A stretch of DNA of 63,806 nt, filler included, from Reclinomonas americana ATCC 50394 (lineage: Eukaryota): assembly GCA_048213135.1 (NCBI GenBank). It is 7 parts of 5 records of this genome, joined end to end, with 100 filler letters (N's around TTAATTAATTAA, not from the genome) between each part and the next. Parts side by side here need not be neighbours in the genome. Positions count along the whole stretch, not along the records: positions 1 to 23,320 come from PS015692.1; 6 more parts are not named here. One strand, 5' to 3'. The notes beneath the pieces are model-generated. The model did no database searches. It was not told the DNA's origin and saw only the letters and a list, made by a program, of their open reading frames with translations. Below, in pieces: positions 762-46,100 of the stretch; position 1 is the first letter of the stretch; each line of letters starts with the position of its first letter. The position numbers were made by a program, and so were the translations under genes.

Positions 762-767
762 TTATTG

Positions 768-799
<32 letters not shown>

Positions 800-3700
800 T
801 TTGCCGTCTCCGCTCCTGCAACGCTGCAATCTCCTGCTGCAGCGTGCCGAGTGTCTTGCGCAACTCCTTGACGCTCTCCACCAGCGGCGCCACCAGCTGC
901 GTGTACGCCACACCCTCTGCCGTGCGATCGGGACGAGTCGTCACCGCCTCCGGCAGCACCTCGTGCACCTCCTCGGCAATGAAGCCGTGCTGCGTGCGCG
1001 AGTCGCCAATCATGTTGTACGTCACGCCACGGAGGTTGAGCACGCGCTGCAGCGACTCGGCGCCACCGAGCGTCACAATGTCGGTCTTGTAGCGCGCCGA
1101 ACTGGTGCTGAACAGGGTGCCGCGAATGAAAATGTCGCCGCTGTGGCCGTGGAAGATCACGTTGGAGCTCCACTTGGTGTCCTGCTCGGGGTGCGCCAGG
1201 TTTGGCGTCGAGAGGTGCGCCGAGAACACCGCCAAGTTGGCGCCGTCCACACCCAGCGACCAGCTCTTGGTGTTGTCGGCCGGTTGCGAGAAGACGAGCG
1301 ATGATGGCACTCCGTCGACCGCGCGAATGGTGAGCGGCTTGGCGAAGCGATGGAACTGTGAAGTGGGGAGAATGGGGAACGGGGTAAGGGAAAGGCGGAA
1401 GTGGAAGGGAAAGGGAAGGGAAAGGGAAAGGGGAAAGGAGAAGGAGAAGGGAAAGGGGAAGGGAAAGGGAAAGGGGAACGAGAAGGGAAAGGGGAAGTGC
1501 AAGGGAAAGGGGAAGGGAAAGGGAAAGGGAAAGGGGAAGGAGAAGGGGAATGAGAACAAGCTACGGAGCGCAATGCCATCTCTTCTGTTCTCTCTCTCTC
1601 TCTCTCCTTTACCGACTGATAGCGCACTCGAGACATACAACAATGCAAAAGAGTTCTCTCTTTCCATCACCGCCGGCATGCTTTGCCTATCCATCGCTCG
1701 CTCTATCTTCTTCTCACACTCTCTCGACAATCACCTCTCTTCTCAAGCTGTCATGGTGCAAGAACACTCTGAAACTGAATTGGGTTTTCATGCGTCCTCT
1801 CCTCATCAACATGAATGGCCATCTGTCTCCCACACACTCTCTCGTTTCTGCACCCCGTACTCGATACCCTCGCTCTCTTCCTACGACATGCATGCGCCAT
1901 CTCGTCCCTCTTATCATTGTATCTCATCCCGGTGCTTCCGTTCTTTCGTCCACGGATCACAACACATGCACTCTTGTCCGCATCCCTCCCTCTCTGCCTC
2001 ACACCAACTACTCGCACCCTTATTCTCTCTCTTAGCCATTCCCTCGCTCTCTTCTTCCAACACATTTAAAACGCATGCGCCATCTCGTCCTTTTTGTCTT
2101 GTATCTCTCAGCGGCTCAATTCTCGCAATAGCTCTCCTCATTTCCTCCCTTTCTCATTTCTCTCTTCCTCCCTCTTCTTTCTTTCCCTCTTCCCCCTTCT
2201 CCCCTTCTCCCTTCCCCCCTTCTCCCTCTTCTCCCTCTTCTCCCTCCAACTCACCCCTTGCGTGCATCCATCCACCCCGAGGCTGCTCACGTGCAGCGAG
2301 CTGGAGGAGCGGAAACCATCGACACGCCACTGCAGCGGCGACACATCCGTGTCGGCGCCAATGGCCACCGACGATGCGTTGATGCGCACCGGCGCCGAAG
2401 CGTTGCCCGACTGCAGCGCCAGCTCACGCGACACCGACGACGACAGCGCTTGCGCCGTGATGCGCGACGTGGTGGCCGACGTGATCACCGAGACGGCGCC
2501 GTTGAGGACGGTGCGCGTGGCCGGTGAGAGGACCACGTTGCCGTGCGGCGACGAGAGGCTCAGGCCGTCGAGCGTGGAGCGCAGCTCGCCATAGTTGCCG
2601 AGCGTCGTCAGCGACGACACGGTCACGTCGCGTCCGGCGGCGGCCTTCAGCGTCAGAGCACCCGCACTGCCAGACTGCAGCGTGAGGTCGCGAGTGCTGC
2701 GAATGACCTGGGCGCACGTCTGCAGAGTGCCGGAGGCCGGGCACAGGTTGAGGTTGCCGTTGACGGTGGAAATGAGGTTGTTGGCCGACGAAGGCGAAAT
2801 GACCACCACCGAGCAGTCGGCGCCGGTGAAGCCGGCGTCGCAAGTGCACGTGCCCGTGCTCATGTCGCACGAGCCGGCAGCGGAGCACTGGTTCGGGCAG
2901 GCGGCTGCAGGGCAGAAGAAAATGGCGTGAGTGAGTGAGTGAGCAAGAAAAGAGTGGAGGACGCAAGCACACGAAACTCGGCGTGGCCGGTCCGCTGCCA
3001 ATGGCCTGTGAGCCGCCGAGTGTCCATGTCAATGAGTTGTTGCCACCAGCGCGGGTGCCGAAGCGGTGACGCGAGCCGAGCACCGACTGCGCCTGCTGGC
3101 TGGAGAGCGCCAGTCGCAGCACATTGTGCTGCGTGCCCTGCACAAACTCCGTCGGCTGGCCCTGGTTGATCTCGCCCGGCGCAATGTTGTTGCGAGCGCC
3201 GTATCCCTGCTGCGCGGTAAAGTAGCCAGTGTTGCGGTAGCCAAAGGTAATCAAGTAGCCCGACTGCACGGCCGTCACATTGTCGACCAACGCCTGCAGG
3301 CTGCCCGGCGCCACAGAGCAGTCCGCGCCGCCGTAGCCACTGGTGCAAGTGCACACACCAATTGTGGTGTCGCACAGACCGCGCTCAGAGCAGCCCTTCG
3401 GGCACGTCTCTGTGTTTGGGAAAGGAGGGGAGAGAGTCGGTTAGTTTCGGGGGTAATGTCAGAGAAGCAATCAGCTACATCAACGCACTTTGCTCGCACG
3501 ACTGAATCGTCGCATCCGCAGTCACCGTCACGCCATTCAGCGTCCACGCCACCGATGCGGCTGTCAGCGGCACCGAGAACACGCCCGAGTGGCGTCCAGG
3601 AGCAAAGGCCGTCGGCTGACCACGATCTGTGGAACAGGGAATACAAAATGTCAGTGACGATGCGCTCCACTTGCCGCCTCGTGCTCCACAAGTCACTCAC

Positions 3701-6700
3701 CGGCCGTGTCGGCGAAAAAGTTGAGACTGCCAATCGGCAGCGGCACAGTGAAGCCGTTGCGATTGTCAAAACCAAACACAATGACTCGGCTCTCGCCAGT
3801 CAGGCGCGTGCACTCGGCAATCGGCTGCACCGCCGTCGGCGCCACCGCGCACGACAGACCGCGGAAACCGGGGAAGCAAGTGCATTGACCGATCAGCGTG
3901 TTGCACAGGCCATGACCACTGCAGTCGCTCGGGCACGGCACTGGTGCAGGGGAATGAGAACGATGAGCAGATAAGAAAAAAGCACGTGAGGAGGCGAACT
4001 ACGCAGTCACTCACCGACACAGCGCTTGTCGGCACGGGTGGCCGCCGCCTCGTTGCCGTCCAGGGCCCAGGTGACAGAGTCGACAAACGGAGCACGCAGC
4101 ACCGAGCGCTGGCGACCAACGTCGAACTTGCTGAGCAGCGTCACCGGGGACGACGCGCCAATGAGGAAGTTGGTCTCGTCGTTCGGCGCACTCGTCTTGA
4201 CCACCGTCGTGGGGTTCGAGTAGCCAAACACTGCCGTGAGCGCACCAGCGGCGTTCTCCTGCACGCACTCCAGCACCGGCACCAGTGATGCAGGCGCCGA
4301 CTCGCACGCGTCGCCAAAGTAGCCATCGGCACAGTTGCACTGGCCGCGCAGGGTGTTGCACGAGCCGTGGCCGTTGCACTCGAGCTCTTCGTCGGACACG
4401 ACGACGGTGGGGCACGACTGGGTGGTCTCCGGGAAGCCGCAGACGGTGCACGATTCTGAGGGGGGAATGGGAGGGGAAGGGATGAGAAAAGGGAAAGGAA
4501 AAGGGAAGAGAAAAGGGGAAGGAGAACGGGAAGGTGAACGGGAAGGAGAACGGGAAGGAGAACGGGAAGGGGAAGGGGAAGGAGGTGAGAGTAAGTGAGA
4601 GTGAGAGAGAGAGGTAAAGGGGAAGGCAGTGGGAGAGAGACACACAAAGAGAGAGGGAGAAAGAGAGAAAAGGATGAGATTGGAAACAGGAAAAGGGTCT
4701 CTGTCTCACTTTCTGTTGTCCTCTGTATCACTCTTCTCCCGTTTCTCGTCCTCCGCCCATCTCTGCTCCTCTTCTTCCAATATTCTTCATCCTGTTGCTC
4801 CGTTCTGTTCGATTCTCTCTTCTCATGATCCTCACTCTTCTTTTCTCGCTATCCGCTCTCCTCTATTTTCTCTTCGCTCTCGACATGCAATGTGCTCTTC
4901 CTCTCAATTCTCTGATCATCGTCTGCAGTATCTCCGTTGTTTCCTTCTCTCTTTCATCGCTCACATTCTCCTTCTTTCAAATCTCTCTCCTCTTCATCCC
5001 CTTCCTCGCCATCCACTCTTCTTTTCGTGCTCTTTTTCTCGCCATCCATCTTCTGACGCCATTGCTATCACTTTGTCTTTCCTTCTTACCCTCTCTTCCC
5101 CTCTCACCCTCCCTTCCCTCTCACCCTCCCTTTCCCTTCTGCCCCTCTCGACTCACCATCACACGAGGGGCTATCCGTCGCCGCGCGCACCACCTGACTG
5201 CCAATCATCCACGACACGCTCTGCGTAAAGGCCACCTGCACGGCACCAAAGACACGCGCACCGGCAACCGAGCGGCTGCTAAACACCGACGGCTGCGTCT
5301 GCGCCTCCAGCGGAGTGACTCCGTCCGAGCTCAGCAGCACATTGGCCGCGGTGCCGGCCGGCAGCACCACATTCACCGCGTTGGAGTTGATGTAGCCGAA
5401 AATGGCAAAGTAGCTGTCGACTTCGGCGTCGAAACGCACGCAATCCAGCTGTGGCACGACAGGCGCATCCGCCACACTGCAGTCCTCGCCACCAAAGCCC
5501 TGATCGCACTCGCACACACCGGCGACACACTCGCCGCGACCACTGCAGCTGTTGGGGCACGGCGTCTGGCACACCGGCGACTCGTCGCTGGCCACCGCCG
5601 ACAAGGTGAACAGACGCCACGCCGTCATGCCGTCCGACGTGCTCGGAGCCACTCGGGCCTCAAAGGCGTAGCTAAAGGTGCCCGGATAGAAGGTGATGGG
5701 CTGTGCACGCGACTGCGGTGACGGCAGGAACTGGTTGTTGTCGCCGACTGGGATGGTGCGCGCCACCGGGTTGGGGTTGCGGTAGCCGAAGCGAGCCACG
5801 CGGCCGAGCTCGGCGTCGTCGCGCACGCACTGCAGCGTCGGCACCACGTCGGCCAGCACCTTGCTGCAGTCATCGCCAAAGAAGGGATCCTTGCACTCGC
5901 ACTCGCCATACAGCGAGTTGCACGAGCCGTGCGCCGCATCGGTGCACCCGTTGGGGCACGTGCGCACACAGCGCGCAGCATTCAGCGTTGCCGTGGCCGT
6001 CAGTGAGCCCACTGTCCACGTGAGATCGCTGACCGGGTTGTACGGCACACGGAACACCTGGTGATGCTCGCCCGCCAGGAACAGGTCGGGCTGGCCGCGA
6101 TTCACCGTGCCCGGCGAGAAGAAATTGTCGCCTGCCGTCTGGTGAATACCACGAGTCTCCGTCGACGGGTTCGAGTAGCCAAACACGGCGGTGAGGGCGC
6201 CAGAGCGCGACTCCTCGAGGCACTCAAACACGGGCACAATCGGACCGACGGCCACACTGCACGTGTCGCCGGAGAAACCCGTCGAGCACGAGCACCGTCC
6301 AACCGTCTGATCGCACACGCCATGGTCGCCGCAGTCCTTTGCACACGGGTACAGGCAGCGCGGCGAGTCGGCCGAGGCGGTCAGTGCCGGCGAGTCGTCC
6401 AGCGTCCAGCTCACACGCGAGTCGGCACTGAATGGCACCTGGAACACGAAGCGGCGGCGGCCAGTGAAGAAGTTGACCGGCTGACCGGCGTTGACCGAGT
6501 CCGCGCCGTCCACCTGGTTGCGGGTACCGACGGCAATGGAACGCGGATATTGGTTGCTGTTGACGTAGCCAAAGTGCGCCACCAGCTGGCCGGCATTCGC
6601 CTGGTCGACCGACACGCACTCGAGAATCGGCTGCACCGTCTGCAGATCGATGCGCGAGCAATCGGCACCCGTCCAGCCCTTGTCGCACGCGCACTTCAGC

Positions 6701-9700
6701 GTCGAGTAGCTGCACGAGCCGTGGTCGCTGCAGAGCGAGCGCGGGCACTGAGCGGGGCACGTGACGGTGAAATCGGACGACGAGGTGGCCTGGAAGTTGT
6801 CGATGCGCCACGACAGCGACGAGTCGGCATCGTGCTCCGTGAGGAACACGGTCGGGTGGCTGCCGGGCTTGAACGACGTCGGTTGACCGAGGTCTGTGTG
6901 GAAGGGGGAATGAGAAAAGAGGTGCGTGGGGAAACGAGAGAAGAAATGGAATGCACACAAACCAGCATCGCCCGGAGAAAACTGGTTGTCGTTCTCGCCA
7001 ATCTGCACCGTGCGCGTCACCACATTCTCGCTGTCGTAGCCCCACACCGAGATCAGCGTGTTTGTGGTGGTGTTGACGAGGTTGCAGTTGAGACGCGGGC
7101 GCACTGGTGCCGTCGGCTGGCTGCAATCCAAGCCGCCAAAGCCCACGTTGCACTGGCACGAGCCGGCCACGCACGAGCCGCGCAGCGAGCAGTCATTGGT
7201 GCACGTCGATGCCAGCAGCGACACGTCGTGGCTGCCGCCGGTGAAAGCCAGGCCAAACGAATCCGATGCCACCGCGCTGCCGGCCGACGCGCCGCCAAAG
7301 AGCGACACGAAAATGCCATTGGCGGCGGAGCGGTCGGGCAGCGAGCGGCTGCTCGGCACCAGCTGCGAGCAGTCGGCGCCCGTGTAGTTCTTGAAGCACT
7401 GGCACACGCCGGAGACGCAGAATCCCTGTCCCGAGCAGCTGTTCGGGCAGGTGGTGCTCTTGCAAAAGTTGGTCGACGGGGGTGGGGAGAGGGTGTCAAT
7501 GAAGCGCAGGCCGTCGGAGAAGATGGCGAGGGAGGAGTCGGTGGAGTTGAGCTGCGCGACAAAAGGGGAAGGGGTTAAGGGGAAGGGGATGAAAGGGGAA
7601 GGGGATGAAGGGGGAAGGGATGAAAGGAGAAGGGATGGAAGGAGAAGGGATGAAATAAGGAAGGGATGAAATGGGGAAGGAAAGAAAGGGGAAGGGATGA
7701 AATGGGGAAGGGATGAAATGGGGAAGGGATGAGGAAGGGACAAGGAAGGGTTAAGATGAGGGATGATGGGGAAGGGGGGAAGGATGGAGAGAGAAGAGGA
7801 ACGAGAGCTGGAAGCAATGCAAGGGCTACAGAATTACGAGTTGATGAGAGACAACAAACGAGTGAGATAGAATCAGAGCGACATGACAGGGCGACGAAAG
7901 ACAGATTAAGCAAACGAAAACAGGAAAATAGAATACAGAGACACAATTGGGAAACAGGCACATTGCGGATGAGTAAAAAGAAGAGGCAGAAGGGGGAAGA
8001 AGCAGTGCGAGCAAGGTGAGGAACACCGAGCACGCTGACGGACCAGAGAAAGAGCGAGAAACGAATGGGAGACTAAAAACTGGGGAACGACAAAGAGAGA
8101 GTGAGCACATTCCCCTTTCCCAAACACAAACCTGCTTGAGTGCCCACTTGTCGACCGTCAACTCGTCAAACGTGGTGTCGCACGGAGTGTTGATCAGCGT
8201 ACGCGTGCGGTTCAGCAGCGTCTCCGTGTCGACCAGGCGCCGGGTGATGCGAGTGGTCTCGGTGGTGTACTGCGACGACAGTGTCGTCCAGGTCGAGTTG
8301 AGCATGTTGACCAGAGTCGTGGTGGTGCTGATCGAGGTCTCCAGTGTCGTGACATGCGTGGTGAGGTCGATGAAAGTCGAGTTCAGCGAGGTGACGTTGG
8401 TGCGCAGAGCGGCGATCTTGGGCGCACAGCACGACGACGCATCGTCGGCCAGCGTGGCAAAGCCGCCACGCACCGCCGAGGTGGAGGTGGTGCGCGGCTT
8501 GGCGTTGTTGGCGTACACGGCCAGCGAGCGGAACTCGGCGGCCGAGATGGTGGTGAAGCCGGAGCCGCTCGAGCGCGGATCGCTGTCGTTGTTGATGTCG
8601 CCCAGGGCCAGCGAGCCCTCACCGACCATCACACCCGACGTCGGACGGAAACGCCAGTCGAGGTTGGCGGGTTCGTCGGCCGAGGTCGAGTTGGAGCGGG
8701 AGAGGCGGCCGAGAATGATCTCGCCGTCGTGGTTCTCCACGTATAGTCCGCGGTCGGTGCCGTTGAAGCGCGCGCCAATGGCGGTGAAGATGAGAGTGGG
8801 TTGGTTGAGTTGCAGCTGCAACAGGGAAAGGGAAGTGGGTGAAGGAAGTGAGTGAAGAGAGAAGGAAAGGGGAAGGAAAAGGGGAAGGAAAAGGGGAAGG
8901 AAAGGGGAAGGAAGGGGAGGGAGACGAGAAGGAAGGGGATGGATGTTGGGATATAGTGTGTGGGGAGAGTGTGTGGGGAGAGTGTGTGGGGAGAGTGTGT
9001 GGGGAAGAGTGGGGGACGAGTGTGGGAGGGGAAGAGTGTGGGGGGAGAGTGTGGGGGGAGAGTGTGTGGAAGGGGTGGATGTGACAGAAGTTCAATTGGA
9101 GAGCGCAGCACAGTGACGATGATCAGTGAAGAAAACAAAGATTGGTGACACACAGCACAAGAGAATTGCAACGCAAAGGCCTTCTCGTGCAACTCCCCGC
9201 TCTCTCTTCTGCCCATCTCCGCAACGCAACTCCAGTGAATGGCGACAGAGCGAAAATCGACGACGAGTTGCCGTTGAGCTCCGTCGACAAGGCAGTGAGC
9301 TGCAGCTGTTCGCTCACTGGGCGCAAGAAGAATTCGTCAGTGAAAAAGTGAAAGAGACAAGAAACAGAGTGCTGGCAACGCACAATTCTTCTCAAACGTG
9401 TAGTTGATGTTGGGATCGGAGAAACCGCCACCAGCAGCTCTGGTATCGCGCGTCGTGTACGAAGAATGCGTGTCACCATCATCCACGGATAGATACTTGC
9501 CGCGTTTCGGAGGACCTACAGAGACAAGTGGTTGATAAATGGTCGAAGCTCTCGCGTTGAACCGAAATCGTACCTTGATTGATGGGCACTTCGGGCTGCC
9601 AACTCATTCGCGATGTACTGATCATGTTCGCCGATTGTATCATCGGAGCGTCGACACCATTGGAGCCCATAATCTGCAAGGCATAAGTGAGTGTGGCAGA

Positions 9701-12700
9701 AAAGAGGGAAGGGGAATACACACACCAACGCACCATCAAATCGTCGTTGGTGGTCCAGTTGCCACGGAGCGGCCAGTACGCCCACAGGAACTGCAGGCCG
9801 ATAAAGATGACCACAATGGCCACCACAATCCACATGGCAATCCAGATGCCACGGCGGCAGCACTGTGCGGGGGGATGAGATGAGCACGAAGTAGGAGAGG
9901 AGGGAGAGGGGGTTGGGAGAGAAGGGGAAAGAGAGAGAGAGAGAGAGGTCTGAATTGAAAGACTTGCCTTCTGACGGAACGGCTCAGCATCGGCGTAAGT
10001 CTTGTGGTGGTCCATGAAGTGGATCTCACGACGCGTGTCGTGCTGCGAGAACGAGCGCTGGCCGAAGAGGACGCGAAGACGGTGCTTCTCGGCATCGCGA
10101 ATGCCTGTGATGTGGAGGTGTGAGGATAGTGGGGAGGAGAGGAGAGAGGGAAGGACTGCTCACCAGGAATGTCGCTCTGCGCCGAGTGGTAGCTGCCTTC
10201 GTCCTCGCGACGAGGAGTCGAGTCGAAGCGAACCTCTCCGCGGGTAGCGAAGCTGATGAGACGGAGGAGGGTAAGCGAAACAGCAACAAACATGACAGAA
10301 GCAGAGGGAAGACTCACCGTGCGCTGTCGGGGAACTCGAGCGTGGTCTGCGGCGGCTCAGTGCGTGCACTCTCCGGGAACTCAATGGTGGTCGTAGGCAA
10401 CTGCTGCAGCTGGCGACGGTCGGTCTTGGGGGTGGCGGGGAACTCAATGTCGGTGGCCGACTTTTCGAAGTCCTCGCCGGCCTTGCGTGCCTCGGCGAGG
10501 TAGTCGAGGGGGCCGCGGGGGGTTCTGAGAAGTGGGCAGAAGGGGAAGGGTGAGGGGGAAGGGGGCGGGAAGAAGGGGAGGGTGAAAGGGAGAGTGAGTG
10601 AGAGAAGGGAGAGAGTAAGAGAAGGGAGAGAGTGAAAGGGGGAGTGAGAAGGGGAGTGAGAAGGGGAGTGGAAGGGGGAGTGGAAGGGGAGTGAAAGGGG
10701 GAGTGAAAGGGGGAGTGAAAGGGGGAGTGAAAGGGGGAGTGAAAGCAAGAGTGAGAAGCGGGAGTGAGAAGCGGGAGTGAGAGGCGGGAGTGAGAGGCGT
10801 GAGTGAGAAGCGGGAGTGAGAAGCGGGAGTGAGAAGCGGGAGTGAAAGGGGGAGAGTGAGAGAAGGGAGAGAGTGAGAGAAGGGAGAGTGAAAGGGGAGT
10901 GAAATGGAAAACATAGAGATAGAAAATGTGTATCAGACAGCGAAGAAAGGCGAAGGAGCAAGGGAATGCGAGGGAATGCAACGAGAGTAAAACAGGAGCG
11001 CAACATGATGGAGAAAAAGAAATGCGAGAGGCGAGGAGAGTGAGAGGGGAGAGTGAAATCAGCATCCTGTCCCTCACTCCCTCTCATCTCGTTCCTTCCC
11101 GTCGTCCCTCACGCTCCCTCCCTTGTCCACCATTCTCTCCCACCACGCAACTCATGCTCAATGACACTGCCCGTGTCGGAACCATCGTGGTCGGGCTCCG
11201 GATCGTTGTCGACACGCTGGATCCACACACGGCCGAGCTCCTTGTTCTTCATCCACCAATCGCTAAACTCGCACTGGTAGTCCTCGCGGATCTTGGACAT
11301 AAAGTCCTGACGCTGCGTCTCCATCTCGGCCGCAAAGGCCTTGGTGCGGAAGTCTTCCGGACGGAAGCGCATGGTTTCGCGCTCCACAGTGCCAGACGCT
11401 GCAACGGGGGAATAGTCAGAGAGACGATTGTGGACAGGGGGGGAGAGACAGCATNNNNNNNNNNNNNNNNNNNNNNNNNNNNNNNNNNNNNNNNNNNNNN
11501 NNNNNNNNNNNNNNNNNNNNNNNNNNNNNNNNNNNNNNNNNNNNNNNNNNNNNNNNNNNNNNNNNNNNNNNNNNNNNNNNNNNNNNNNNNNNNNNNNNNN
11601 NNNNNNNNNNNNNNNNNNNNNNNNNNNNNNNNNNNNNNNNNNNNNNNNNNNNNNNNNNNNNNNNNNNNNNNNNNNNNNNNNNNNNNNNNNNNNNNNNNNN
11701 NNNNNNNNNNNNNNNNNNNNNNNNNNNNNNNNNNNNNNNNNNNNNNNNNNNNNNNNNNNNNNNNNNNNNNNNNNGAGAGGGAGAGGGAAGGCAAAAAGAG
11801 GCGGGGAGGGGAGGGTAAGGGGAGAGGGAAGGAAAAGGGAAGGAAGAGGGAAGGAAGAGGGAAGGGAGAGGGAAGGGAGAGGGAAGGGAGAGGGAAGGGA
11901 GAGGGAAGATAGGGTGAAGCACGGGACGGATGGTGTGAACGGTGACACGACAGAGATGCGCAGAACGACACGGAAGTGAACAACGAAGCTCAATTATGAG
12001 TGAAACCAAGAGAGCAGCAGGTACAAGTGAACAAAAGCGAACTGAGAGTGCACGGATGCGGAAAAACGATGAAAGGCACAGAAGTGAGAACACAATACAA
12101 GTGTCAACAAAACATGCGAGAAGGGCGCAGCAGTGATGTGAGACACGATCAGCTGAAGTGAAGAAAGAGAGAGGAACGTGCAGAATGACACGCGAGCAAA
12201 GGCCGCAAGTGTGAGAAGAGCCAAGAGAAATGAACGAGTGTGCAGAGAATGCAGAATGAAACAGAAGTAAAGAAGTGGGTTGAGAACAGAGTGACTGAAG
12301 AATGCAGAGAAGCAGAATGACACAGAAATCAATGAAGAGCACAGAAATGAAAGTTCAGAGAATGCAGAATGACAAAGACATGAGGGAATGGGCTGAGTGC
12401 GTGACTTCAGCGGGAAGAATACAGAATATGTGGAGTGAGAGAAGAGCAAAAAATACAGCGGAAAAGGTGTGCAAAAAAACTGAATAGAAATCAGTACTGT
12501 GTTCGAAATCCTTCGCTGCACAGACAAGCAATGCAGAGTAATGCTCACAGCTTCCCAGTCAGCTGTCCCTCTGTCCTCTCTCTCCCCACTCCTCCCCAAG
12601 AAACGTCGCGCTCACCTCACTGAGGAACCGCGCCGAAGCCGACGTCGAGTCACCCGTGGCCGTCAGCAGCGACGAGGAGGACGCGCCTGCCGCGTCCGCT

Positions 12701-12795
12701 GCCGCCAAAGCCTGTCCTGCAGCCGCCGAGGATGCGCTCGAGGGAGAAGTCGGCGGAGAGCTTCCGACTGTGAATGGTGGAGCGCGCAGAGACAT
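762..12795 (-). CDS. Giant type II membrane protein: cytosolic N-terminus, TM helix, coiled coil, 10 tenascin-like EGF + 8 unnamed repeats, beta-fibre region, C-terminal peptidase S74 (intramolecular chaperone) domain
   Basis: Manual exon chain with compatible phases where checked: ~12621-12795 (tentative, separated by an N gap), 11152-11398, 10318-10524, 10164-10252, 9968-10104, 9733-9862, 9574-9673, ~9384-9515, 9231-9316, 8132-8815, 6962-7552, 5156-6893, 4015-4455, 3701-3940, 3488-3626, ~2971-3409, 2254-2905, 762-1355. TM segment IWIAMWIVVAIVVIFIGLQFLWAYW follows RQKCCRR. EGF pattern CPxxCSxHGxC..C.C..G(F/Y).G.DCS. The end reads TSSARYKTDI...LRGVTY...GFIAEEVHEVLPEAV...VAYTQLVAPLVESVKEL plus coiled coil and polyQ. 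Confidence 0.8.
800..1103 (-). other. Peptidase S74 / endosialidase-type intramolecular chaperone domain with trailing coiled coil
   Basis: S-S-A-R-Y-K at 1086-1103 (variant of the S-D-x-R-x-K Ser/Lys dyad), G-F-I-A-E-E-V, L-P-E-A-V and V-A-Y-x-x-L-V-A-P-L-V-E-S-V-K-E-L motifs in the canonical order. Confidence 0.88.
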
Positions 12796-30257: not shown

Positions 30258-31806
30258 ATGTCTGCGAAGAAAAACACTTCATTCGCTGAGACGATGACTC
30301 GGCTTGTGGAGTGGGCTGCCAAGGAAGGCCTGGGGAACCCCGCTGCCGTTGAGCCGCACGTCGCTCAGTGCGTCTGTGAGTTCACTGAGCTGTATACATA
30401 TACGGTGCGGATGACCCAGAGTCGGCTCTGCCGGCGGCAGTGGTACACGCCATGACCCTTATGAAGATGGGAGAGCACGGGCGCGCCTTGCCAATTCTTG
30501 AAGACTCGCTGGCACGCTGTCGTCGTGTGTCAGGTGATGATCGTCGAGACACACTGACCATGGCGTCTGTATTGGGCCACGTACTCTTCGAGCTCGGTCG
30601 CTTTGACGAGGCCGTCGCACTCCTTCGCGACACTGTGGAACGCATGGAGCGAGTGCTGCCGAGGGACAGCAGTGATTCGCTGAGCACCATGTACAGTCTC
30701 ACTCGTTCTCTGGCCAAGTGTGGCCATCATGAGGAGGCCGTCTGCATTGGTCGTGCTCTGGTACAGCGAGGGCGTCGAGTGCTTGGAGAGGACGATAAGG
30801 AGACGCTTGCAAGCGCGCACTTGCTTGGCGCTGAACTCAGCAATGCTGGCGGCGTGGACAACTTGGAGGAGGCAGTGCGGCTGTTGGAAGACACGCTGGA
30901 GCGCCGTCGACGAGTGCTGGGCGTCGGTCACACGGACACGCGCGGCACTGCCGATGTGCTCGAGACTGCTCGCTTGCGTCGTGCAAATCCCCCTGCTGCA
31001 GGTTTGTCTTTTGTACACGTAACTGTACTGGGGCACGCCGGCGCCTTGTTGGCACTCACCACGACCATGCTTGTATTGTATGTATCACCGCAGTGCGCCT
31101 TGATGCGGCCGCTGCGCGATTGAAAGAAGCGGATTGCCTCGTCAAGGCGACAGAATATGCTGCTGCAGAGCCACTCTTTGCTCAGTGTGTATGCGACTTC
31201 ACGGAGCTGCTCGCTGCGGATGATCCGATCGCGAAGTGGACACTCTTTGCTGCGTTTCGTCGCTCTTTTTGTCTTTTTCGTATGGACGAGTTCGAGCTCT
31301 TGCTGCCTATCGCCGAGGACACGCTTGCGCGTCGTCGTCGTGTGTCAGGTGATGATCATGGTGACACACTGGCCATGGCGTCTGTATTGGGCCACGTACT
31401 CTTCCAGCTCGGTCGCTTTGACGAGGCCATCGCGCTCCTGCGCGACACCCTGGAGCGCATGGAGCGAGTGCTGCCGAGGGACGACAGTAATACGCTGAGC
31501 ACCATGCACAGTCTCACTCGTTCTCTGGCCAAGTGTGGCCATCATAAGGAGGCCGTCTGCATTGGTCGTGCTCTGGTACAGCGAAGGCGTCAATTGCTTG
31601 GCGAGGACGATCCGCTGACGCTAAAGAGTGCGTACGTGCTTGGCGCTGAGCTTGGCAATGCTGGCGGCGTGGGCAACTTGGAGGAGGCAATTCGGCTTTT
31701 GAAGGCCACGCTAGAGAGTTGTCGACGAGTGCTGGGTGCGGATCATCTGACCACCCGACTCACAGAGTTTGCACTTAACGCTGCACATCAGCAGGTCAGT
31801 GAGTGA
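30258..31806 (+). CDS. TPR protein (kinesin-light-chain-like TPR_10/12 repeats) made of two internally duplicated units; frameshift near 30393-30400
   Basis: Repeats of the type LEDTLARRRRVSGDDHGDTLAMASVLG and RRRVLGVGHTDT. ORFs 30440-31123 and 31093-31806 are joined in phase by a GT-AG intron at 31002-31093. The first unit has 8 extra nt (TATACATA) compared with the second unit (ACGGAGCTGCTCGCTGCGGATGATCCG). Confidence 0.75.
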
Positions 31807-32742: not shown

Positions 32743-35700
32743 GAGAGTAGAATCAGGACGGAGAGGCACACACGGGAAATGAAGACAGGGAACACATGTG
32801 AAAACAATGCAAGACAACAGGCAAAGAGTGAGAGAGAGGCGCACGCATGCGGAAAGAGTAGGATGAGAGGAGAATGTGAGTGAATGACAAAGGATGCGAG
32901 GAGGATAAGCAGCAAGCACGCACGAGATACGGGAGGTGAGGGGAGGAGGAAGAAGAAGAGGGCGATGTGAGTGACTCACACCACGGATGCGATTCGCTCA
33001 AGGCACACAGACAAGCACGCACACGCGAGATGATGAGCACTCCAAGAAGGAAGAGGGAGAGAGAGAGAAGACAGAGAATGCGAAACTGATGAGGGTGTTG
33101 ATCAATCACGTCACGCATGCGCGGTGCGGTCACACGAATCAATGACACGCATACATACACGCCGAGGAGGGAGAAAAGAGAGAGGAGAGAACAGAGAGCG
33201 CGAGAATGTGACGCAGATGGGCGTGAAAATCAATCGCATCCAGAATGCAGCTGCAGCGCGCACAGGCAAATCAACGAGACGCACGCGCACACACGCAGCA
33301 ATGTTCACTCAGAGGAGGAAAAAGAAGAGGGTGAGAGAGGAAAGGGGAGAAGGAATCATGTCTGCGATCAATTCAGAAGAATTCTCTCTCTCTCTTTCTC
33401 ACTCACTCTCTCGCTCTCTCTCTCTCTCTCTCTCCCGCACACACACACACACACACACACCTTTCATGCAACAACAAATCGAACATGAGTCCTTTTCGCC
33501 TCCCGCGTCCCTGTTTCGCTCACACCCAGCACTCTCTTCCTCACTCATCCATGACACGTGGCACAGCAGGCGACCATCAAAACACGGGCGTGCTGCAGAA
33601 AGAAAGATACGTCAGGTGTCCTGCATGACATTAATCTCACAAGCACAACGTACACCGCAACGAGAACAAGCCGACTGTCTGTGTGAGACGTGTGTGCAAC
33701 AAGGTACATCGTGCTGAAGAGCGAGAAGAGAAGCCAAGAACTGCGACGAGAAGATGTCGGTGAGCTGTATTGATTGAGTGGGGGGACGCTTGCTTCTCTC
33801 TGTGTCTTCTCTCTCATCGCTTGTCGCTCACTGCCTTGTGTGTGCACAGTTTTCTGTGAATGTGAGTGCGGCGCATGATTCATCGCTGTCGGTGGTGGTG
33901 GAGGGCATGTCGGGCATGTCCACTCTCGCGGACTTGCTGCGCGAGGCCACACGCTTGCTGCGTGAGAAGAGTGGAGATGGGGAGATGGAGATTGTGGGAG
34001 TGGAAAAGCCTGTGTCATATGACCTGACGCACGCCAGCGGCGTGCCGCTGTGTGCGCTGGGCATCAACTCATCCACTCATCTTGTTGTCTGTCTGACACT
34101 TGGCATGGCGCTGCAGTCGAGTGGAGGAAGTGAGAGTGGAAGGTATGTATGTCTGGGATGTGGAATCTTCTCTCTGTGCGCAAAGCATGCAGCTCACTCT
34201 CATGTCTTCGCACAGCAACTCGGATCGAGTGACGCGGTTTGTTTCGACTGTGTCCTCCTTTCTCCCTTCGTGTTCTTCACTCGGCATGAGTCTGATTGTG
34301 TTTGTATGCACGCACAGCATGATCAACTCGCAGCGCATCAACATGGCCTTTGATGTGGTGGAGGAGGCCGTGCGTCTGCAATGTCAGCGTGCACTGGCGC
34401 AGTTCAGTCGCGACCACCCCGACTTTGATGTGCGGGCGTGGGTGCCGAGATTCACGCCTGCCGGCATGGATGCGGCGGCGGTGAAGGGATGGCGTGAGTG
34501 TCATGCTCCACTCCATCCTGGTCGAGTCAAGTTGTTTGAGGAGAAGCAGCCGGCGATGTTGGCCTGGCGCGATGCATACGACGTCGACCCCTCGTCCGAC
34601 CCCACGTGTGACGGTTTTGACACGACTGCGCTCTCCTCTATCATGCTATATGGTGGCTTTGTGCACAGTGACGGTCGCAAGCTTCTGCTGATTGACGATA
34701 CTGATGAGCGGAAGGCAGTGGAGGAGCAGCATTCTGTCAGGAACAAGCTGAGACACGATGAGTTGCCGTTGACGGATGCCACTGTTCAGGAGTACCTTGA
34801 CGATGGCGGCATCTTCCGCTCTATCCTCTCTCGATTGCAACTGACGGCTGACGATCGGGCTCGACTCTTGGCTCGTGTCAGTGAGGCACGTCACGCCTGT
34901 CACATTGTTGACACATTCGAGGAGCGACTGCACCGACTGGCTGAGCGTGAGCTGTCATTCTATCAGCGCGACGAAAGTATGCGCAAGGACATGCAGATGT
35001 ATGTGCCGCTGTTGTGTTCCCGTGATCGCGACGTCTCGTCGAGAGACAACATGATGGATCTGTTGACGGAAGTGGATGTGTTCCTCTCTGACACCAACAC
35101 CACCCAGCGTGTGCTGGTGCTCTTTGGCAACAGTGGAGTCGGTCAAGACCACCACCATGTCGGTGCTGGCTGAGCGAGCATGGCGACAGTGGCAGACGCG
35201 AGAAAGTCGACGTGTGCCTGTGCGTGTGCCTCTTGGTGCTCTGCGCAATGCCGATGAGCGGCTGCTGGAAGAGGCACTGGAGCGACTGTCACCCGAGTTG
35301 GGATTGGAGTCGGATGTGCGACGGTTGAAGGAGGAACCACTACTGTTGTTGCTTGACGGGTACGATGAGCTGTATCGTGGTGTGAATCTGTTTGTCAAGA
35401 ATCAGCTGGATGTGTGTCGCGACGTAAAGGTGATTATCACCTGCCGTGGCGATTACGCACTGACGGTACTGGGTGGTGTGACACAGTATCGACGGTACTT
35501 TGCGCCGGTTGATGCACGAGGACAGTTGTGCATGCAGCAGCTGATGGAACGACACATTGCTCCTTTCAACAAGGAGCAGATTGAGGAGTACTTTGAGCGA
35601 CTGGTGCAAGTAGAAGGTGATGATGATGATGAAGAGCGATGGTCGACTGCCGAAGAGTACATTCGTGCACTGAAGAGTGTGCATGGACTGGATGCATTGG

Positions 35701-38700
35701 TGTCGAATCCATTCCTGTTGGCAGTGGTGGCTCATGTGTTGCCGCAGTTGGTAGCGAGTGGCGTGCAGCGACCGACTCGGTGCGATGTGTTTGACCGATT
35801 CATTCGATCGTGGATTGTAAGGGAGCAGGAGAGACAGACACGTCTCGGTGCGGAGCGTGTACCGAATGAAGAGACGTGTCTGGCGTTCTGTGAGGGACTG
35901 GCACGGTTGCTGCACGAGACGAATGTGGTGCGTGTGTCTGTGACGGAGAGTCAATCATGTGAGGATGATTTCGGTTGCGCGCCGCTCGACCTTCGACGAG
36001 TGGAGGAGGGACCATTTGATAAGTTCCTCGGTCCCAAGAATCAGCACGTACGAGTGTGCTGTCCGATTGTGCGTCGGTTCGGCACGAATCAGTGGGGTTT
36101 CGTGCATCTGTCTCTGCTCGAGCACTGTGTGGCACAGCATGTGTTTGCGTGGGAGACGTGGGATGAGAAGAGAAGGTTGACGATGCAAGATGTGCAGCGT
36201 CATGTGTTGGCAGTGCGTCCGCTGAACGACAGACCATCGTTGGTGGAGCAGATGGCCGAGGTGGTGCGACGGTCTCCTCGATTGCAAGCGAGACTGTGGG
36301 AGGTGATTGAGATGTCACGTGAAGTGGATGAGGAGCGAGTGGTGACGGCAGCCGCGAATGCTGCGACGGTGTTGTGTGTGGCAGAAGTGTCGTTCAGCGG
36401 ACGCGATCTGTCGTGTGTGCGAGTGAGGGGTGCGGATTTGAGGGATGCAGTGATGCACAGGACGGTGTGGAAGGGGGCGGATTTGCGTGGGGTTAACGTG
36501 TGCATGGCGTATGCAAGGGAGGCGGATTTCAGAGGGGCGGATGTGACGGATGTGAGGTGGCCGAGGAAGCCGTTGGTGGGGCACACCGGTGCGGTGCAGG
36601 CCGTTGCCGTCACTCCCGATGGGCAGCACATTGTGAGTGGCAGTGATGACAAGACTGTACGGTGTGGTCAGTGGCAAGTGGCAAGGAAGTGCGCCGACTG
36701 GAAGGGCACACGAGTGAGGTGCGTGCAGTGGCAGTCACACCCGATGGCCAGCACGTTGTGAGTGGCAGTGATGACAAAACTGTACGGGTGTGGTCAGTGG
36801 CAAGTGGCAAGGAAGTGCGCCGACTGGAAGGGCACACGAGTGAGGTGCGTGCAGTGGCAGTCACACCCGATGGTCAGCACATTGTGAGTGGCAGTGATGA
36901 CAAAACTGTACGGGTGTGGTCAGTGGCAAGTGGCAAGGAAGTGCGCCGACTGGAAGGCCACACTAAGTGGGTGTTTGCGGTGACAGTGACGCCGGATGGT
37001 CGGTACATTGTGAGTGGCAGTGTAGACGAGACTGTGCGGGTGTGGTCACTGGCTAGTGGCGAGGAGGTGCGACGGTTGGAAGGCCACACGAGTGGGGTGT
37101 GGGCAGTAGCAGTGACACCCGATGGCCAGCGCATTGTGAGTGGCAGTGATGACAATACTGTACGGGTGTGGTCGGTGGCAAGTGGCGAGGAGGTGCGCCG
37201 ACTGAAAGGCCACACGGGTTGGGTCTCATCTGTGGCAGTGACACCCGATGGCCAGCACATTGTGAGTGGCAGTCTGGACATGACTGTACGTGCGTGGTCG
37301 GTGACAAGTGGCGAGGAGGTGCGCCGACTGGAAGGCCACGCGAGTTCGGTGTTTGCAGTGGCAGTGACACCCGATGGCCAGCACATTGTGAGTGGTAGTC
37401 GGGACAATACTGTACGTGTGTGGTCGGTGGCAAGTGGCGAGGAGGTGCGCCGACTAGAAGGCCACACGAGTGTGGTGTATGCAGTGACAGTGACACCCGA
37501 TGGTCAGCACGTTGTGAGTGGCAGTGATGACCAAACTGTACGGGTGTGGTCGGTGGCAAGTGGCGAGGAGGTGCGCCGACTGGAAGGCCACACGAATGAG
37601 GTGCTGGCAGTGGCAGTGACACCCGATGGCCTGCACATTGTGAGTGGCAGTGGGACCATTGTGGGGTGTGGCAGTCGGGATAATACTGTACGGGTGTGGT
37701 CGGTGGCAAGTGGCGTGGAGATGCATCGACTGGAAGGCCACATGTGGCCGGTGAATGCAGTGGCAGTGACACCCGACGGCCAGCACATTGTGAGTGGCAG
37801 TCGGGACAATACTGTACGGGTGTGGTCGCTGGCAAGTGGCGAGGAGGTGCATCGAGTGGAAGGCCACACGAGTAACGTGGATGCGGTGGCAGTGACACCC
37901 GATGGCCAACACATTGTGAGTGGCAATTCGGACAAGACTGTACGGGTGTGGTCGATGGCAAGTGGCGAGGAGGTGCGCCGACTGAAAGGCCACACGGGAG
38001 GGGTGCATGCAGTGGCAGTGACACCCGACGGCCAGCACATTGTGAGTGGCAGTCGGGACAATACTGTACGGGTGTGGTCGATGGCAAGTGGCGAGGAGGT
38101 GCGCCGACTGGAAGGCCACACGAGTAACGTGAGTGCAGTGGCAGTGACACCCGATGGCCAACACATTGTGAGTGGCAGTTCGGACAAGACTGTACTGGTG
38201 TGGTCGCTGGCAAGTGGCGAGGAGGTGCACCGACTGGAAGGCCACACGAGTGGGGTGTGTGCAGTGGCAGTGTCACTCGATGGCCAGCACATTGTGAGTG
38301 GTAGTGGAGACGGGACTGTACGGGTGTGGTCGGTGGCAGGTGGCGAGGAGATGCGCCGACTGGAAGGACACACTAGTGAGGCGGGGGCAATGGCAGTGAC
38401 ACCCGATGGCCAGCACATTGTTCCACGGGAGAAGGAGATGTTATGCGTGCGCCGTCGTGATGGACTGCTCGAGCGCATCATCGGCTCCTTCCTTCCTGAT
38501 TTCACCGATGTAATTTGGTGACAATCACAACAGCGACCGTGTATGAACCCTCGAATGTAAACCAGCTTGTTTGTGATGAGGTCGTGCCAGATGTAAGAAC
38601 ACACATGTTATCGTCGCCCTCAACTTCTATGCCGTGTGTGCTGATTTACCATCACGAGGTACTCCACTCGTTACGCACTTTCTCTGATGGAAGAAACCTC

Positions 38701-43155: not shown

Positions 43156-46100
43156 ATGTCGGTGAGTTGTATTGATTGAGTGGGGGACGCTTGTTGTCCG
43201 CGTGCTTCTCTTTGTCTTCTCTCTCTCTCATCGCTTGTCACTCACCGCCTTGTGTGTGTGTCGCAGTTCTCTGTGAATGTGAGTGCGGCGCATGACTCGT
43301 CGCTGTCGGTGGTGGTGGAGGGCATGTCGGCCATGTCCACTCTCGCGGACTTGCTGCGCGAGGCCACTCGCTTGCTGTGTGAGAAGAGTGGAGATGACGG
43401 GGTGGAAATTGTGGGAGTGGAGAAGCCTGTGCCATACGAACTGGAAGACGCTCCGGTGATGAAGCTTCGCAGTCTGGGCATCAACTCATCCACTCACCTT
43501 GTTGTCCGTCTGACACTTGGCGTGGCGCCGCAGTCGAAGGGAGGGAGTGGAAGTGAGAGTAGAAGGTGTGCGTCTGGGTGTGCATCACGTCTGTGTGCGA
43601 AACATGCATCTCACTATTGCTCTCATGTCATTGAACAGCAACTCGGGGCGAGTGACTCGGTTTGTTCTGCTTGCCTTCGTCGTCCTCGTCTCTCACTTTC
43701 CTTATTCTTCCACACAGTGTGAGTCTGTGCTGACCGTGCTTGCTTGTACGTGCAGCATGATCAACTCGCAGCGCATCAACATGGCCTTTGAGGTGGTGGA
43801 GGAGGCCGTGCGTCTGCGCTGTCAACGCATACTGGCGCAGTTCAGTCGCGATCATTCCGACTTTGATGTGCGGGCGTGGGTGTCGAGTTTCATGCCTGCT
43901 GGTATGATTGCGGTGGCGATGAAGGCATGGCGTGCGCGACATGTGCCGGTTACTAGATGGCAAGTTAGGTTGTATGAGGAGAAGCAGTCGGTGCTGTTGG
44001 CCTGGCGTGCTGCGTTCGATGCGGACCCCTCATCTGACCCACCGTGTAACGGTTTTGACACGACGGCACTAACCTCTATCTTGTTGTATGGTGGCTTTGT
44101 TGAGGATGACGGTCGCAAGCTGCTGCTGATTGACGATGCTGATGAACGGAAGGCAGTGGAGGAGCTGCACGGTATCAGAAACCAGCTGCGACACGATGAG
44201 TTGCTGTTGACACACGACAGTGTGCAGCAGGACCTTGGTGACGGTGGCATCTTCCTCTCTATTCTCTCTCGACTGCAGTTGAAGGTTGACGAGCGCGCTC
44301 GATTCTCTGCTCGCATTTGTGAGGCACGTCACGCTCGACTCATCATGGACACATTCGAGGAGCGACTGCATCGACTGGCTGTGCGTGAGCTCTTAGTCTA
44401 CCAGCATGACGAGAGTGTGCGCAAGGACATGCAGATGTATGTGCCACTGCTGTGCTCACGCGACCGTGACGTCTCGTCGAGAGACAAGATGACGGCACTG
44501 TTGACGGAGGTGGATGCTTTCCTTTCCGACGCCAACACCACGCAGCGTGTGCTGGTGCTGTTTGGCAACAGTGGTGCTGGCAAGACCACCACCATGTCAG
44601 TGCTGGCTGAGCGAGCATGGCGACAGTGGCAGACGAGAGAAAGTCAACGAGTGCCTGTGCGTGTGCCTCTCGGTGCTATGCGCAATGCCGATGAGCGATT
44701 GTTGGAGGAGGCATTGGAGCGACTCTCACCCGAGTTGGGATTCAGTGAGGCGGATGAGCGACGGTTGAAGGAGGAACCACTGTTGTTGTTGCTGGACGGG
44801 TACGACGAGTTGTACCGTGGTGTGAATCTGTTTGTTAAGAATCAGCTGGATGTGTGTCGCGATGTGAAGGTGATTATCACTTGTCGAGGCGATTACGCAC
44901 TGACGGCATTGGGTGGTGCGACACAGTATCGACGGTACTTTGCGCCGGTGGATGCACGAGGACAGTTGTGCATGCAACAGCTGATGGAGCGACACATTGC
45001 ACCGTTCAACAAGGAGCAGATTGAGGAGTACTTTGAGCGACTCGTGCAAGTGGGTGGTGATGATGATGACGGTGAAGTGCGATGGTCAACAGCCGAGGAG
45101 TACATTCGTGCAATGAAGAGTGTGCATGCGCTGGATGTACTGGTGTCGAATCCGTTGCTGCTGGCGGTGGTGGCTCGTGTGTTACCGCAGTTGGTAGCGA
45201 GTGGCGTGCAGCGACCGACTCGGCGTGATGTGTACGATCGCTTCATTCGACAGTGGATTGAGAGGGAGCAGGAGAGGCAGACTCGTCTCGGTGCGGAACG
45301 TGTGCCGGGTGAGGAGACGTGTCTCTCGTTCTGTGAGGGACTGGCACGGTTGATGAATGAGAGGAATGTGGCGCGTGTATCGGTGGCGGAGACTCGGTCA
45401 GATGATGGGGAGGAGGGCGAAGACTTTGGTGGTGCACCACTCGCCATGCGACGAGTGGACGAAGGACCGTTTGACAAGTTTCTCGGTCACAAGAACCAGC
45501 ATGTGCGAGTGTGCTGTCCGATTGTGCGACGGTTTGGGACGACGCAGTGGGGTTTCGTTCATCTGTCATTGCTTGAACACTGTTTGGCGCGCCATGTGTT
45601 TGCGTGGGAGACGTGGGATGTGGAGAGGAGGTTGACGATGCAGGACGTGCAGCAGCATGTGCTGGCAGTGCGGCTGCTGAACGACAGACCTTCGTTGGTG
45701 GAGCAAATGGCCGAGGTGGTGCGACGGTCTCCTGCACTGCAAGCGAGACTGTGGGAGGTGATTGAGTTGTCACGGGAGGTGGATGAGGAGAGAGTGGTAA
45801 CGGCAGCGGCGAATGCAGCGACGGTGTTGTGTGTGGCACAGGTGTCGTTCAGTGGACGAGATTTGTCTGGTGTGCGAGTGAGGGGTGCGGATTTGAGGGA
45901 TTCGGTGATGCACAGAACGGTGTGGAGGGGAGCGGATTTGCGAGGGGTGAATGTGTGCATGGCGTATGCGAAGGAGGCGGATTTCAGAGGGGCGGATGTG
46001 ACGGGTGTGAAGTGGCCGAGGAGGCCGATGGTGGGACACACGGACAAAGTGCGGTCTGTGGCAGTGTTTCCTGATGGTCAACACGTTGTGAGCGGGAACT

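Follow-up and report, generated by a model that had tools for sequence, protein, structure and literature searches.

The gene described here lies at positions 762-12795, on the minus strand, of a 63,806-nt stretch of DNA from the GC-rich eukaryote Reclinomonas americana ATCC 50394 (assembly GCA_048213135.1). This whole stretch, called the window below, joins seven parts of five records with 100-N fillers between them, and its positions 1 to 23,320 correspond to PS015692.1. The gene ends in a Peptidase_S74 domain (PF13884) with its Ser-Lys dyad in place. We consider it rather probable that its product is a cellular type II surface fiber, in which this phage-type S74 chaperone folds the distal stalk and trims the end. 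A wider reading is put forward more tentatively, as one that could well be true: a eukaryotic cell may have taken over a phage fiber tip together with S74 for a membrane-anchored trimeric fiber built of EGF and immunoglobulin-like (Ig-like) modules. In that case cells would have put the domain to use twice independently, in MYRF and here, and the protein would represent an undescribed class of eukaryotic surface fiber with a self-cleaved C-terminus.

The S74 domain and the predicted trimer of the last exon

The first-pass annotation had placed a Peptidase_S74 domain in 762-1355, with the cleavage serine at 1101-1103, and the Pfam result agrees on both points. The open reading frame (ORF) holding 1355-762 matches PF13884 over the complete profile (positions 1-58 of 58) with 48.9 bits (cut-off 22) and an E-value of 8.2e-13. 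The Ser encoded at 1103-1101 coincides with position 1 of the profile. The Ser-Lys dyad of the domain is described in PMC3742443. In the present protein, it corresponds to Ser85 and Lys90 of exon 18, the last exon, or Ser2174 and Lys2179 of the complete model, five residues apart.

For an alignment, the last exon was combined with 37 short S74 proteins that a search of representative sequences had returned. Ser85 and Lys90 are invariant in 38 of the 38 aligned sequences, as are Gly124, Ala127, Pro135 and Tyr151. Most rows of the alignment, like the present protein, have an Arg three positions behind the Ser; an oxyanion-stabilizing Arg, with no position given, is mentioned in PMC3742443. A local hidden Markov model (HMM) built from this alignment finds S74 once in the six frames of the window. 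At its very end (800-765), just ahead of the stop codon, the gene has a CAG/CAA repeat that codes for a Gln run.

Searched with the alignment profile, the solved chains that match are those of phage fibers and of MYRF: the phage long tail fiber distal subunit 6f45 (E 2.6e-18), MYRF 7dc3 (E 2.2e-14), the tail fiber 8jov (E 9.9e-12) and the T5 L-shaped fiber 8hqz (E 6.8e-6). When the last exon was compared with solved structures as a single sequence, only two designed repeat proteins were returned (E about 0.002), and these were set aside as spurious. In PHROGs, 39 families match; 20 of the 25 listed are tail fiber, tail or baseplate families, and these 25 were all matched near the C-terminal ends of their profiles. 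The best of them, phrog_1980 'tail fiber protein' (E 1.4e-21), is matched at profile positions 306-445 of 449. This, together with the position of S74 at the far C-terminus, supports the tail-fiber-like order that had been proposed.

The last exon was also folded in three copies, without the S74 alignment. The median score of this prediction is 0.91, versus 0.01 for the best control, with a partner pLDDT (predicted local distance difference test) of 87 or more, and at least 98% of the contacts are common to the runs. In the calibration of this score, 21 of 30 proteins with a solved structure of two copies of one chain reach the mark, and none of 23 solved as single chains does. The predicted interface is formed by the pre-S74 segment (exon 18 residues 1-47 and 65-84), the cleavage region and helices. 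Some S74 proteins align from residue 10-36 of exon 18 onward and thus share the pre-S74 segment.

Gene model and membrane topology

Stop-to-stop ORFs were surveyed on the minus strand between positions 1 and 14000, where coding-looking pieces alternate with CT-rich low-complexity stretches. Joined by hand, from the genomic sequence alone, these pieces give a model of 18 exons and 2286 residues with compatible phases and without a stop. Sixteen of its 17 introns are of the GT-AG type and one, at the exon 5 donor, is GC-AG. The features are the following:

12795-12621, minus strand: exon 1; putative start codon at 12795-12793; phase-1 donor that fits exon 2; the least certain exon
11398-11113, 10524-10318, 10252-10164 and 10104-9968, minus strand: exons 2-5; predicted cytoplasmic N-terminal region without a known family
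9862-9734, minus strand: exon 6; predicted single transmembrane helix, at about 9776-9850
9673-9574, 9515-9384 and 9316-9231, minus strand: exons 7-9; short juxtamembrane exons with compatible phases, less certain
8815-8132, minus strand: exon 10; a domain without family, then a Thr-rich heptad coiled coil at 8192-8416
7551-6963, 6893-5157, 4455-4015, 3940-3701, 3626-3489 and 3409-2963, minus strand: exons 11-16; EGF/Ig-like array
2904-2255, minus strand: exon 17; end of the EGF/Ig-like array (2904-2810) and first part of the stalk (2809-2255)
1355-762, minus strand: exon 18; last 84 stalk residues (1355-1104), S74 (1103-765) and stop codon (764-762)
1103-765, minus strand: S74 chaperone of 113 residues; Ser at 1103-1101, Arg at 1094-1092, Lys at 1088-1086; helical segment and poly-Gln tail

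In this hand-built chain, the single spliced frame of the first-pass annotation, from transmembrane helix through coiled coil, EGF modules and stalk into S74, can be followed from exon 6 to exon 18. The chain was fitted to the phases by hand, and compatible phases alone are not independent evidence. Independent of the model building are restored repeat motifs, the GC content at third codon positions (GC3), the distribution of Met and a shared stalk motif. At the split-codon junctions 11/12 and 14/15, splicing restores the motif Ala-Asp-x-Gly-Gln-Pro-x-x-Phe, which is also found in uninterrupted repeat units of the gene and in P0183, a EukProt transcript. The coding sequence has a GC3 of 0.82, versus a GC content of 0.52 in the introns; the S74 exon has a GC3 of 0.85, and exons 10-17 range from 0.70 to 0.88, with 0.88 in exon 10. 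No Met is encoded in exon 18 upstream of the catalytic Ser, and there is none in the model between residues 619 and 1293, so that the EGF-stalk-S74 part depends on exons further upstream for its start codon and its targeting to the endoplasmic reticulum (ER). Finally, the stalk motif Ser-Leu-Gly-Val-Asp-Gly is common to the end of exon 17 and to exon 18. An alternative start would be Met68, in exon 2.

The introns have some peculiarities of their own. The one after exon 5 (9967-9863), with the GC donor, has a length that is a multiple of three and contains no in-frame stop; its retention would add 35 residues in the same frame. The phase-1 introns 6962-6894 and 3700-3627, although they lie in two different EGF/Ig-like units, both interrupt the Asp codon of the repeat motif at the same place, so that the intron position was duplicated together with the repeat. 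At 1400-1580, 4470-4650, 7580-7800 and 10560-10900, the introns are full of CT-rich, microsatellite-like sequence that reads as Pro/Phe/Ser repeats, and ORF lengths are therefore inflated across exon borders.

Only one segment of the 2286-residue model exceeds 1.6 on the Kyte-Doolittle scale over 19 residues. It covers residues 299-330, with KCCRR just before it, and was already taken for a transmembrane helix with the N-terminus inside in the first-pass annotation. All 18 N-x-S/T sequons and 84 of the 87 Cys residues are located after this helix, and the region of exons 2-5 contains none of the sequons and a single Cys. The flanks of the helix carry a net charge of +2 on the N side and -1 on the C side. 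The sequons, the Cys residues and the flank charges all fit a predicted N-in, C-out type II topology. Exons 2 and 3 have no Pfam match even at an E-value of 10.

The Thr-rich heptad coiled coil, expected at about 8200-8420, is recovered at 8192-8416 (residues 581-655). In the best register, 17 of its 25 a and d positions are hydrophobic, compared to no more than 12 in any of the six others; I, V, F, W or Y occupy the a positions and L the d positions. Exon 10, which holds it, is without a Pfam or PHROGs family.

Based on this model, the product would be a single-pass type II membrane glycoprotein of about 2286 residues with a cytoplasmic N-terminus. Its ectodomain would consist of the membrane-near heptad coiled coil, ten EGF and eight Ig-like modules, a 269-residue beta-strand stalk and the S74 chaperone, in this order. 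In the ER, S74 might register the three chains and nucleate the folding of the stalk, by analogy with phage endosialidases and tail fibers. The Ser2174-Lys2179 dyad would then cut between Thr2173 and Ser2174 and free a fragment of 113 residues. What is left over would be a membrane-anchored, probably trimeric fiber with its free tip pointing away from the cell.

The EGF/Ig-like array, the stalk and their relatives

A Pfam scan of eight ORF pieces identified S74 in one, EGF families in five and no family in two; neither the coiled-coil piece nor the transmembrane piece has a match. The five EGF pieces, in the region of exons 11-17, match EGF_Teneurin and EGF_2, and ten tenascin-type EGF cysteine patterns were recognized there, in keeping with the EGF arrays reported earlier. 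Between 2810 and 7551, these ten modules alternate with eight units of about 100 residues that carry an FGY motif and are interpreted as Ig-like beta-sandwich modules. The fold predicted for the repeat unit from a six-unit alignment (pLDDT 80.6) is indeed an EGF followed by a beta-sandwich. In a Foldseek comparison of this model with the PDB, nothing matched at E up to 0.001. VIA-align, over 48,161 chains, returned only generic Ig-like domains (GH2 accessory domains, IgA Fc and HAP2 domain III), with Z up to 6.5, a size of value that is common for shared arrangements.

The EGF families are held in common with tenascins and teneurins. However, the domains that accompany them there, FN3 and fibrinogen in tenascins and the YD-shell in teneurins, were not matched in the Pfam scan of the pieces, and the tenascin matches span just 5-51% of exon 12. 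The stalk that follows the array has 269 residues and is beta-rich, with 16% Ser and also much Leu, Ala, Val, Thr and Gly. It is not matched by any family of Pfam or PHROGs. The homologue search with exon 17 gave five matches, all of them tenascins, which cover about 30% of the query and its EGF part only.

The best match of exon 12 is P0183, a EukProt transcript of 2799 residues (E 4.4e-80, with 34% identity across 80% of the exon); pairwise BLAST gives alignments of 548-811 residues at 27-30% identity. The transcript and the present gene have in common the repeat unit of an EGF and a beta-sandwich. In Pfam, P0183 has EGF families, VWD, PKD and REJ, and no S74. Its topology appears to be the opposite one: a hydrophobic N-terminus and a near-C-terminal hydrophobic stretch look, by eye, like a signal peptide and a transmembrane helix. 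As the repeat unit is shared with this transcript, the EGF/Ig-like scaffold is a protist extracellular module.

The S74 tip, compared in the same manner, is without a close relative in the searched collections. Against 1.84 billion representatives, the last exon has 33,186 matches at E up to 0.001 and 792 at E up to 1e-10, and none at E up to 1e-30. A word-based search of longer proteins gave 32 matches, all with PF13884, the best being 42% identical over 54% of the query. Ten clusters of the nearest S74 relatives come from metagenomic or unnamed sources, under the names 'hypothetical protein' and 'ACT domain-containing protein' only, which are silent on their origin. None of the metagenome contigs searched with the last exon encodes a relative. 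Exon 12 retrieved five short contigs of up to 2.9 kb, none with S74 according to the local HMM, a result that their length makes little informative. Among viral contigs, five loci were found with the last exon, 29-42% identical over part of the domain. Two of the nearest S74 relatives, the metagenomic proteins P0050 (5473 aa) and P0052 (7103 aa), have three S74 stretches each, some of them internal.

Known S74 proteins and alternative explanations

The arrangement closest to the one described here is that of phage endosialidases and tail fibers (6f45, 8jov, 8hqz), which likewise have S74 at the far C-terminus behind a beta-rich fiber segment. Ser and Lys are five residues apart in both, the residue before the Ser is not a Pro, and the assembly is a trimer, which is predicted in our case. 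Unlike those fibers, this one is encoded by a spliced eukaryotic gene, contains EGF and Ig-like modules and would fold in the secretory pathway. Phage fibers are fixed to the virion, whereas here the predicted N-terminal helix would tie the fiber to a membrane.

MYRF and MrfA (7dc3 for MYRF) are the other obvious comparison, as eukaryotic S74/ICA proteins with a single transmembrane helix, a conserved dyad (PMC3742443) and the type II topology that is also predicted here. In MYRF, however, S74 is cytosolic and internal, lies before the transmembrane helix and frees an Ndt80-type DNA-binding trimer. In the present protein it is terminal, on the predicted extracellular side and after the only transmembrane helix. 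A conserved Pro precedes the cleavage Ser of MYRF (PMC3828593), and Thr2173 takes its place here. No Ndt80 domain was found by Pfam in the ORFs holding exons 2-3, 5-8 and 10-18 (exons 1, 4 and 9 were not covered). The layout is thus unlike that of MYRF, as the first-pass annotation had stated. A MYRF-like signaling role was considered and rejected, since cleavage here would free only the chaperone.

The same annotation regarded MYRF and MrfA as the characterized eukaryotic S74 proteins. This is correct for cellular proteins (PMC3742443, PMC3828593) and leaves out the fibers of protist viruses (PMC12220804, PMC13620141). Polinton-like viruses of most protist groups encode modular fibers of up to 3.9k residues with S74 at the C-terminus (PMC12220804), and genomic islands of giant viruses are enriched in the S74 domain (PMC13620141). 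Fibers of polinton-like viruses, virophages and giant viruses resemble the present protein as very long modular proteins with a single terminal S74 in a eukaryotic setting (PMC12220804, PMC13620141). They differ in carrying laminin G, collagen, phage-tail-repeat or adenovirus-fiber modules and in sitting in viral elements; the gene studied here has introns, a predicted membrane anchor, EGF/Ig-like modules and no viral neighbors. In the literature, no paper was found that combines Peptidase_S74 with EGF. Among the matches listed for PF13884 none concerns a cellular protein, and those listed for endosialidase, horizontal gene transfer and protist tail fibers include no cellular case. Public databases contain many unreviewed non-MYRF eukaryotic entries named 'Peptidase S74 domain-containing'.

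Several observations weigh against a cellular, trimeric, membrane-anchored fiber. The exon chain is our own construction from genomic sequence, an assembly gap of 320 N (11455-11774) separates exon 1 from the other exons, the donors of exons 9 and 16 are weak and that of exon 5 is GC. Exons 7 and 8 have a lower GC3 (0.61 and 0.57), and exons 7-9 are less certain because of this and of the weak exon 9 donor. Intron 10 contains an ATG-initiated hydrophobic ORF (7963-7871, minus strand), conceivably an alternative signal-peptide exon. Regarding the trimeric filament of the first-pass annotation, the three-copy prediction for the last exon speaks for it and is one fold only; its pass may reflect a memory of solved S74 trimers, and of seven eukaryotic cases without an older solved relative, one passed the mark. 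In the coiled coil, beta-branched or aromatic residues at a with Leu at d are, by the rules derived from GCN4, not specifically trimeric. The stalk has no detectable relative in the homologue search with exon 17, and the monomer fold of exon 17 without an alignment is uninformative (pLDDT 38). As for relatives, the best S74 match among the 1.84 billion representatives reaches only 81.5 bits and 39% identity. None of 30 scanned large S74 matches has an EGF family at E up to 1e-5 (30 of the 35 listed matches above 1000 residues were scanned; two of the five omitted exceed 5000 residues), and none of the 27 exon 12 matches at E up to 0.001 lists PF13884. No ortholog with the combined transmembrane-EGF-S74 layout was found in the representative, homologue and metagenome-contig searches, which may reflect thin sampling of the lineage.

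It is therefore worth asking what else the gene could be. The EGF-stalk-S74 part might be real and not joined to the transmembrane and coiled-coil exons, the product being secreted or using another first exon. We regard such a partly wrong gene model as unlikely. The genomic origin of the exon chain, the position of exon 1 beyond the gap, the short exons 7-9 (GC3 0.57-0.76, one weak donor) and the hydrophobic ORF in intron 10 speak for it. However, the EGF array cannot start alone, as there is no Met between residues 619 and 1293, and the junctions from exon 6 to exon 18 are all phase-compatible. Exon 10, with a GC3 of 0.88, resembles the EGF exons, whereas the ORF in intron 10 is T-rich, unlike the exons, and not coding-looking.

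An endogenized fiber gene of a polinton-like virus, virophage or giant virus, with no function as a cellular surface protein, seems quite improbable, even though large modular S74-ended fibers occur widely among the polinton-like viruses that have integrated into protist genomes (PMC12220804) and among giant viruses (PMC13620141). The 17 introns, one of them GC-AG, point to a cellular gene, as does a codon bias that is uniform between the S74 exon and the remainder of the gene, and the predicted cytoplasmic N-terminal region and transmembrane helix also speak against a viral fiber. The EGF/Ig-like repeats are shared with a protist transcript without S74, P0183, and identity to the nearest viral contigs is only 29-42% and confined to part of the domain. 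In addition, no capsid, packaging ATPase, polymerase or integrase family was found by Pfam in 74 neighboring ORFs (24, plus 50 of 93 further ORFs, all of at least 100 residues), in which the families present are TPR, NACHT-WD40 and a weak match to Sec3. Equally improbable, in our view, is an S74 that has been kept and does not cleave, acting as a trimerization foot only, or an unexpressed relic gene. No orthologs were found that would show purifying selection, which leaves room for it; an open frame of 2286 codons with a strong codon bias, in which the dyad and four further invariant positions are kept, speaks against either.

Further along the window, the plus strand carries a TPR_10/TPR_12 gene and two large NACHT plus WD40 ORFs (30389-31806, 35067-38521 and 43514-47959), one of them an open frame of 1481 residues. 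Between 53784 and 60716 lies a block with a GC content of 0.64-0.68, flanked on both sides by paired 44-N gaps. Its intronless, bacterial-looking ORFs encode an E1-E2 ATPase with a HAD hydrolase domain, a MerR regulator, a carbohydrate phosphorylase and a 2-hydroxyacid dehydrogenase. This block is probably a separately assembled contig, derived from a bacterial contaminant or a transfer.

Prey capture and a part in a hair, a scale or an extrusome had been suggested as functions; nothing in the analysis supports any of these. A surface fiber of this kind might have an adhesive role. As a cellular domain, S74 is so far known from studies of the MYRF transcription factors only; elsewhere it belongs to phages, bacterial fibers and protist viruses. 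Long S74-ended fibers are already known from the latter (PMC12220804, PMC13620141), and what would be new is their use by the cell, provided that the gene model holds. If so, eukaryotes can build phage-style, self-processed trimeric fibers on their own surface, and the R. americana gene would be a traceable case of a viral or bacterial fiber tip fused to a eukaryotic adhesion scaffold.

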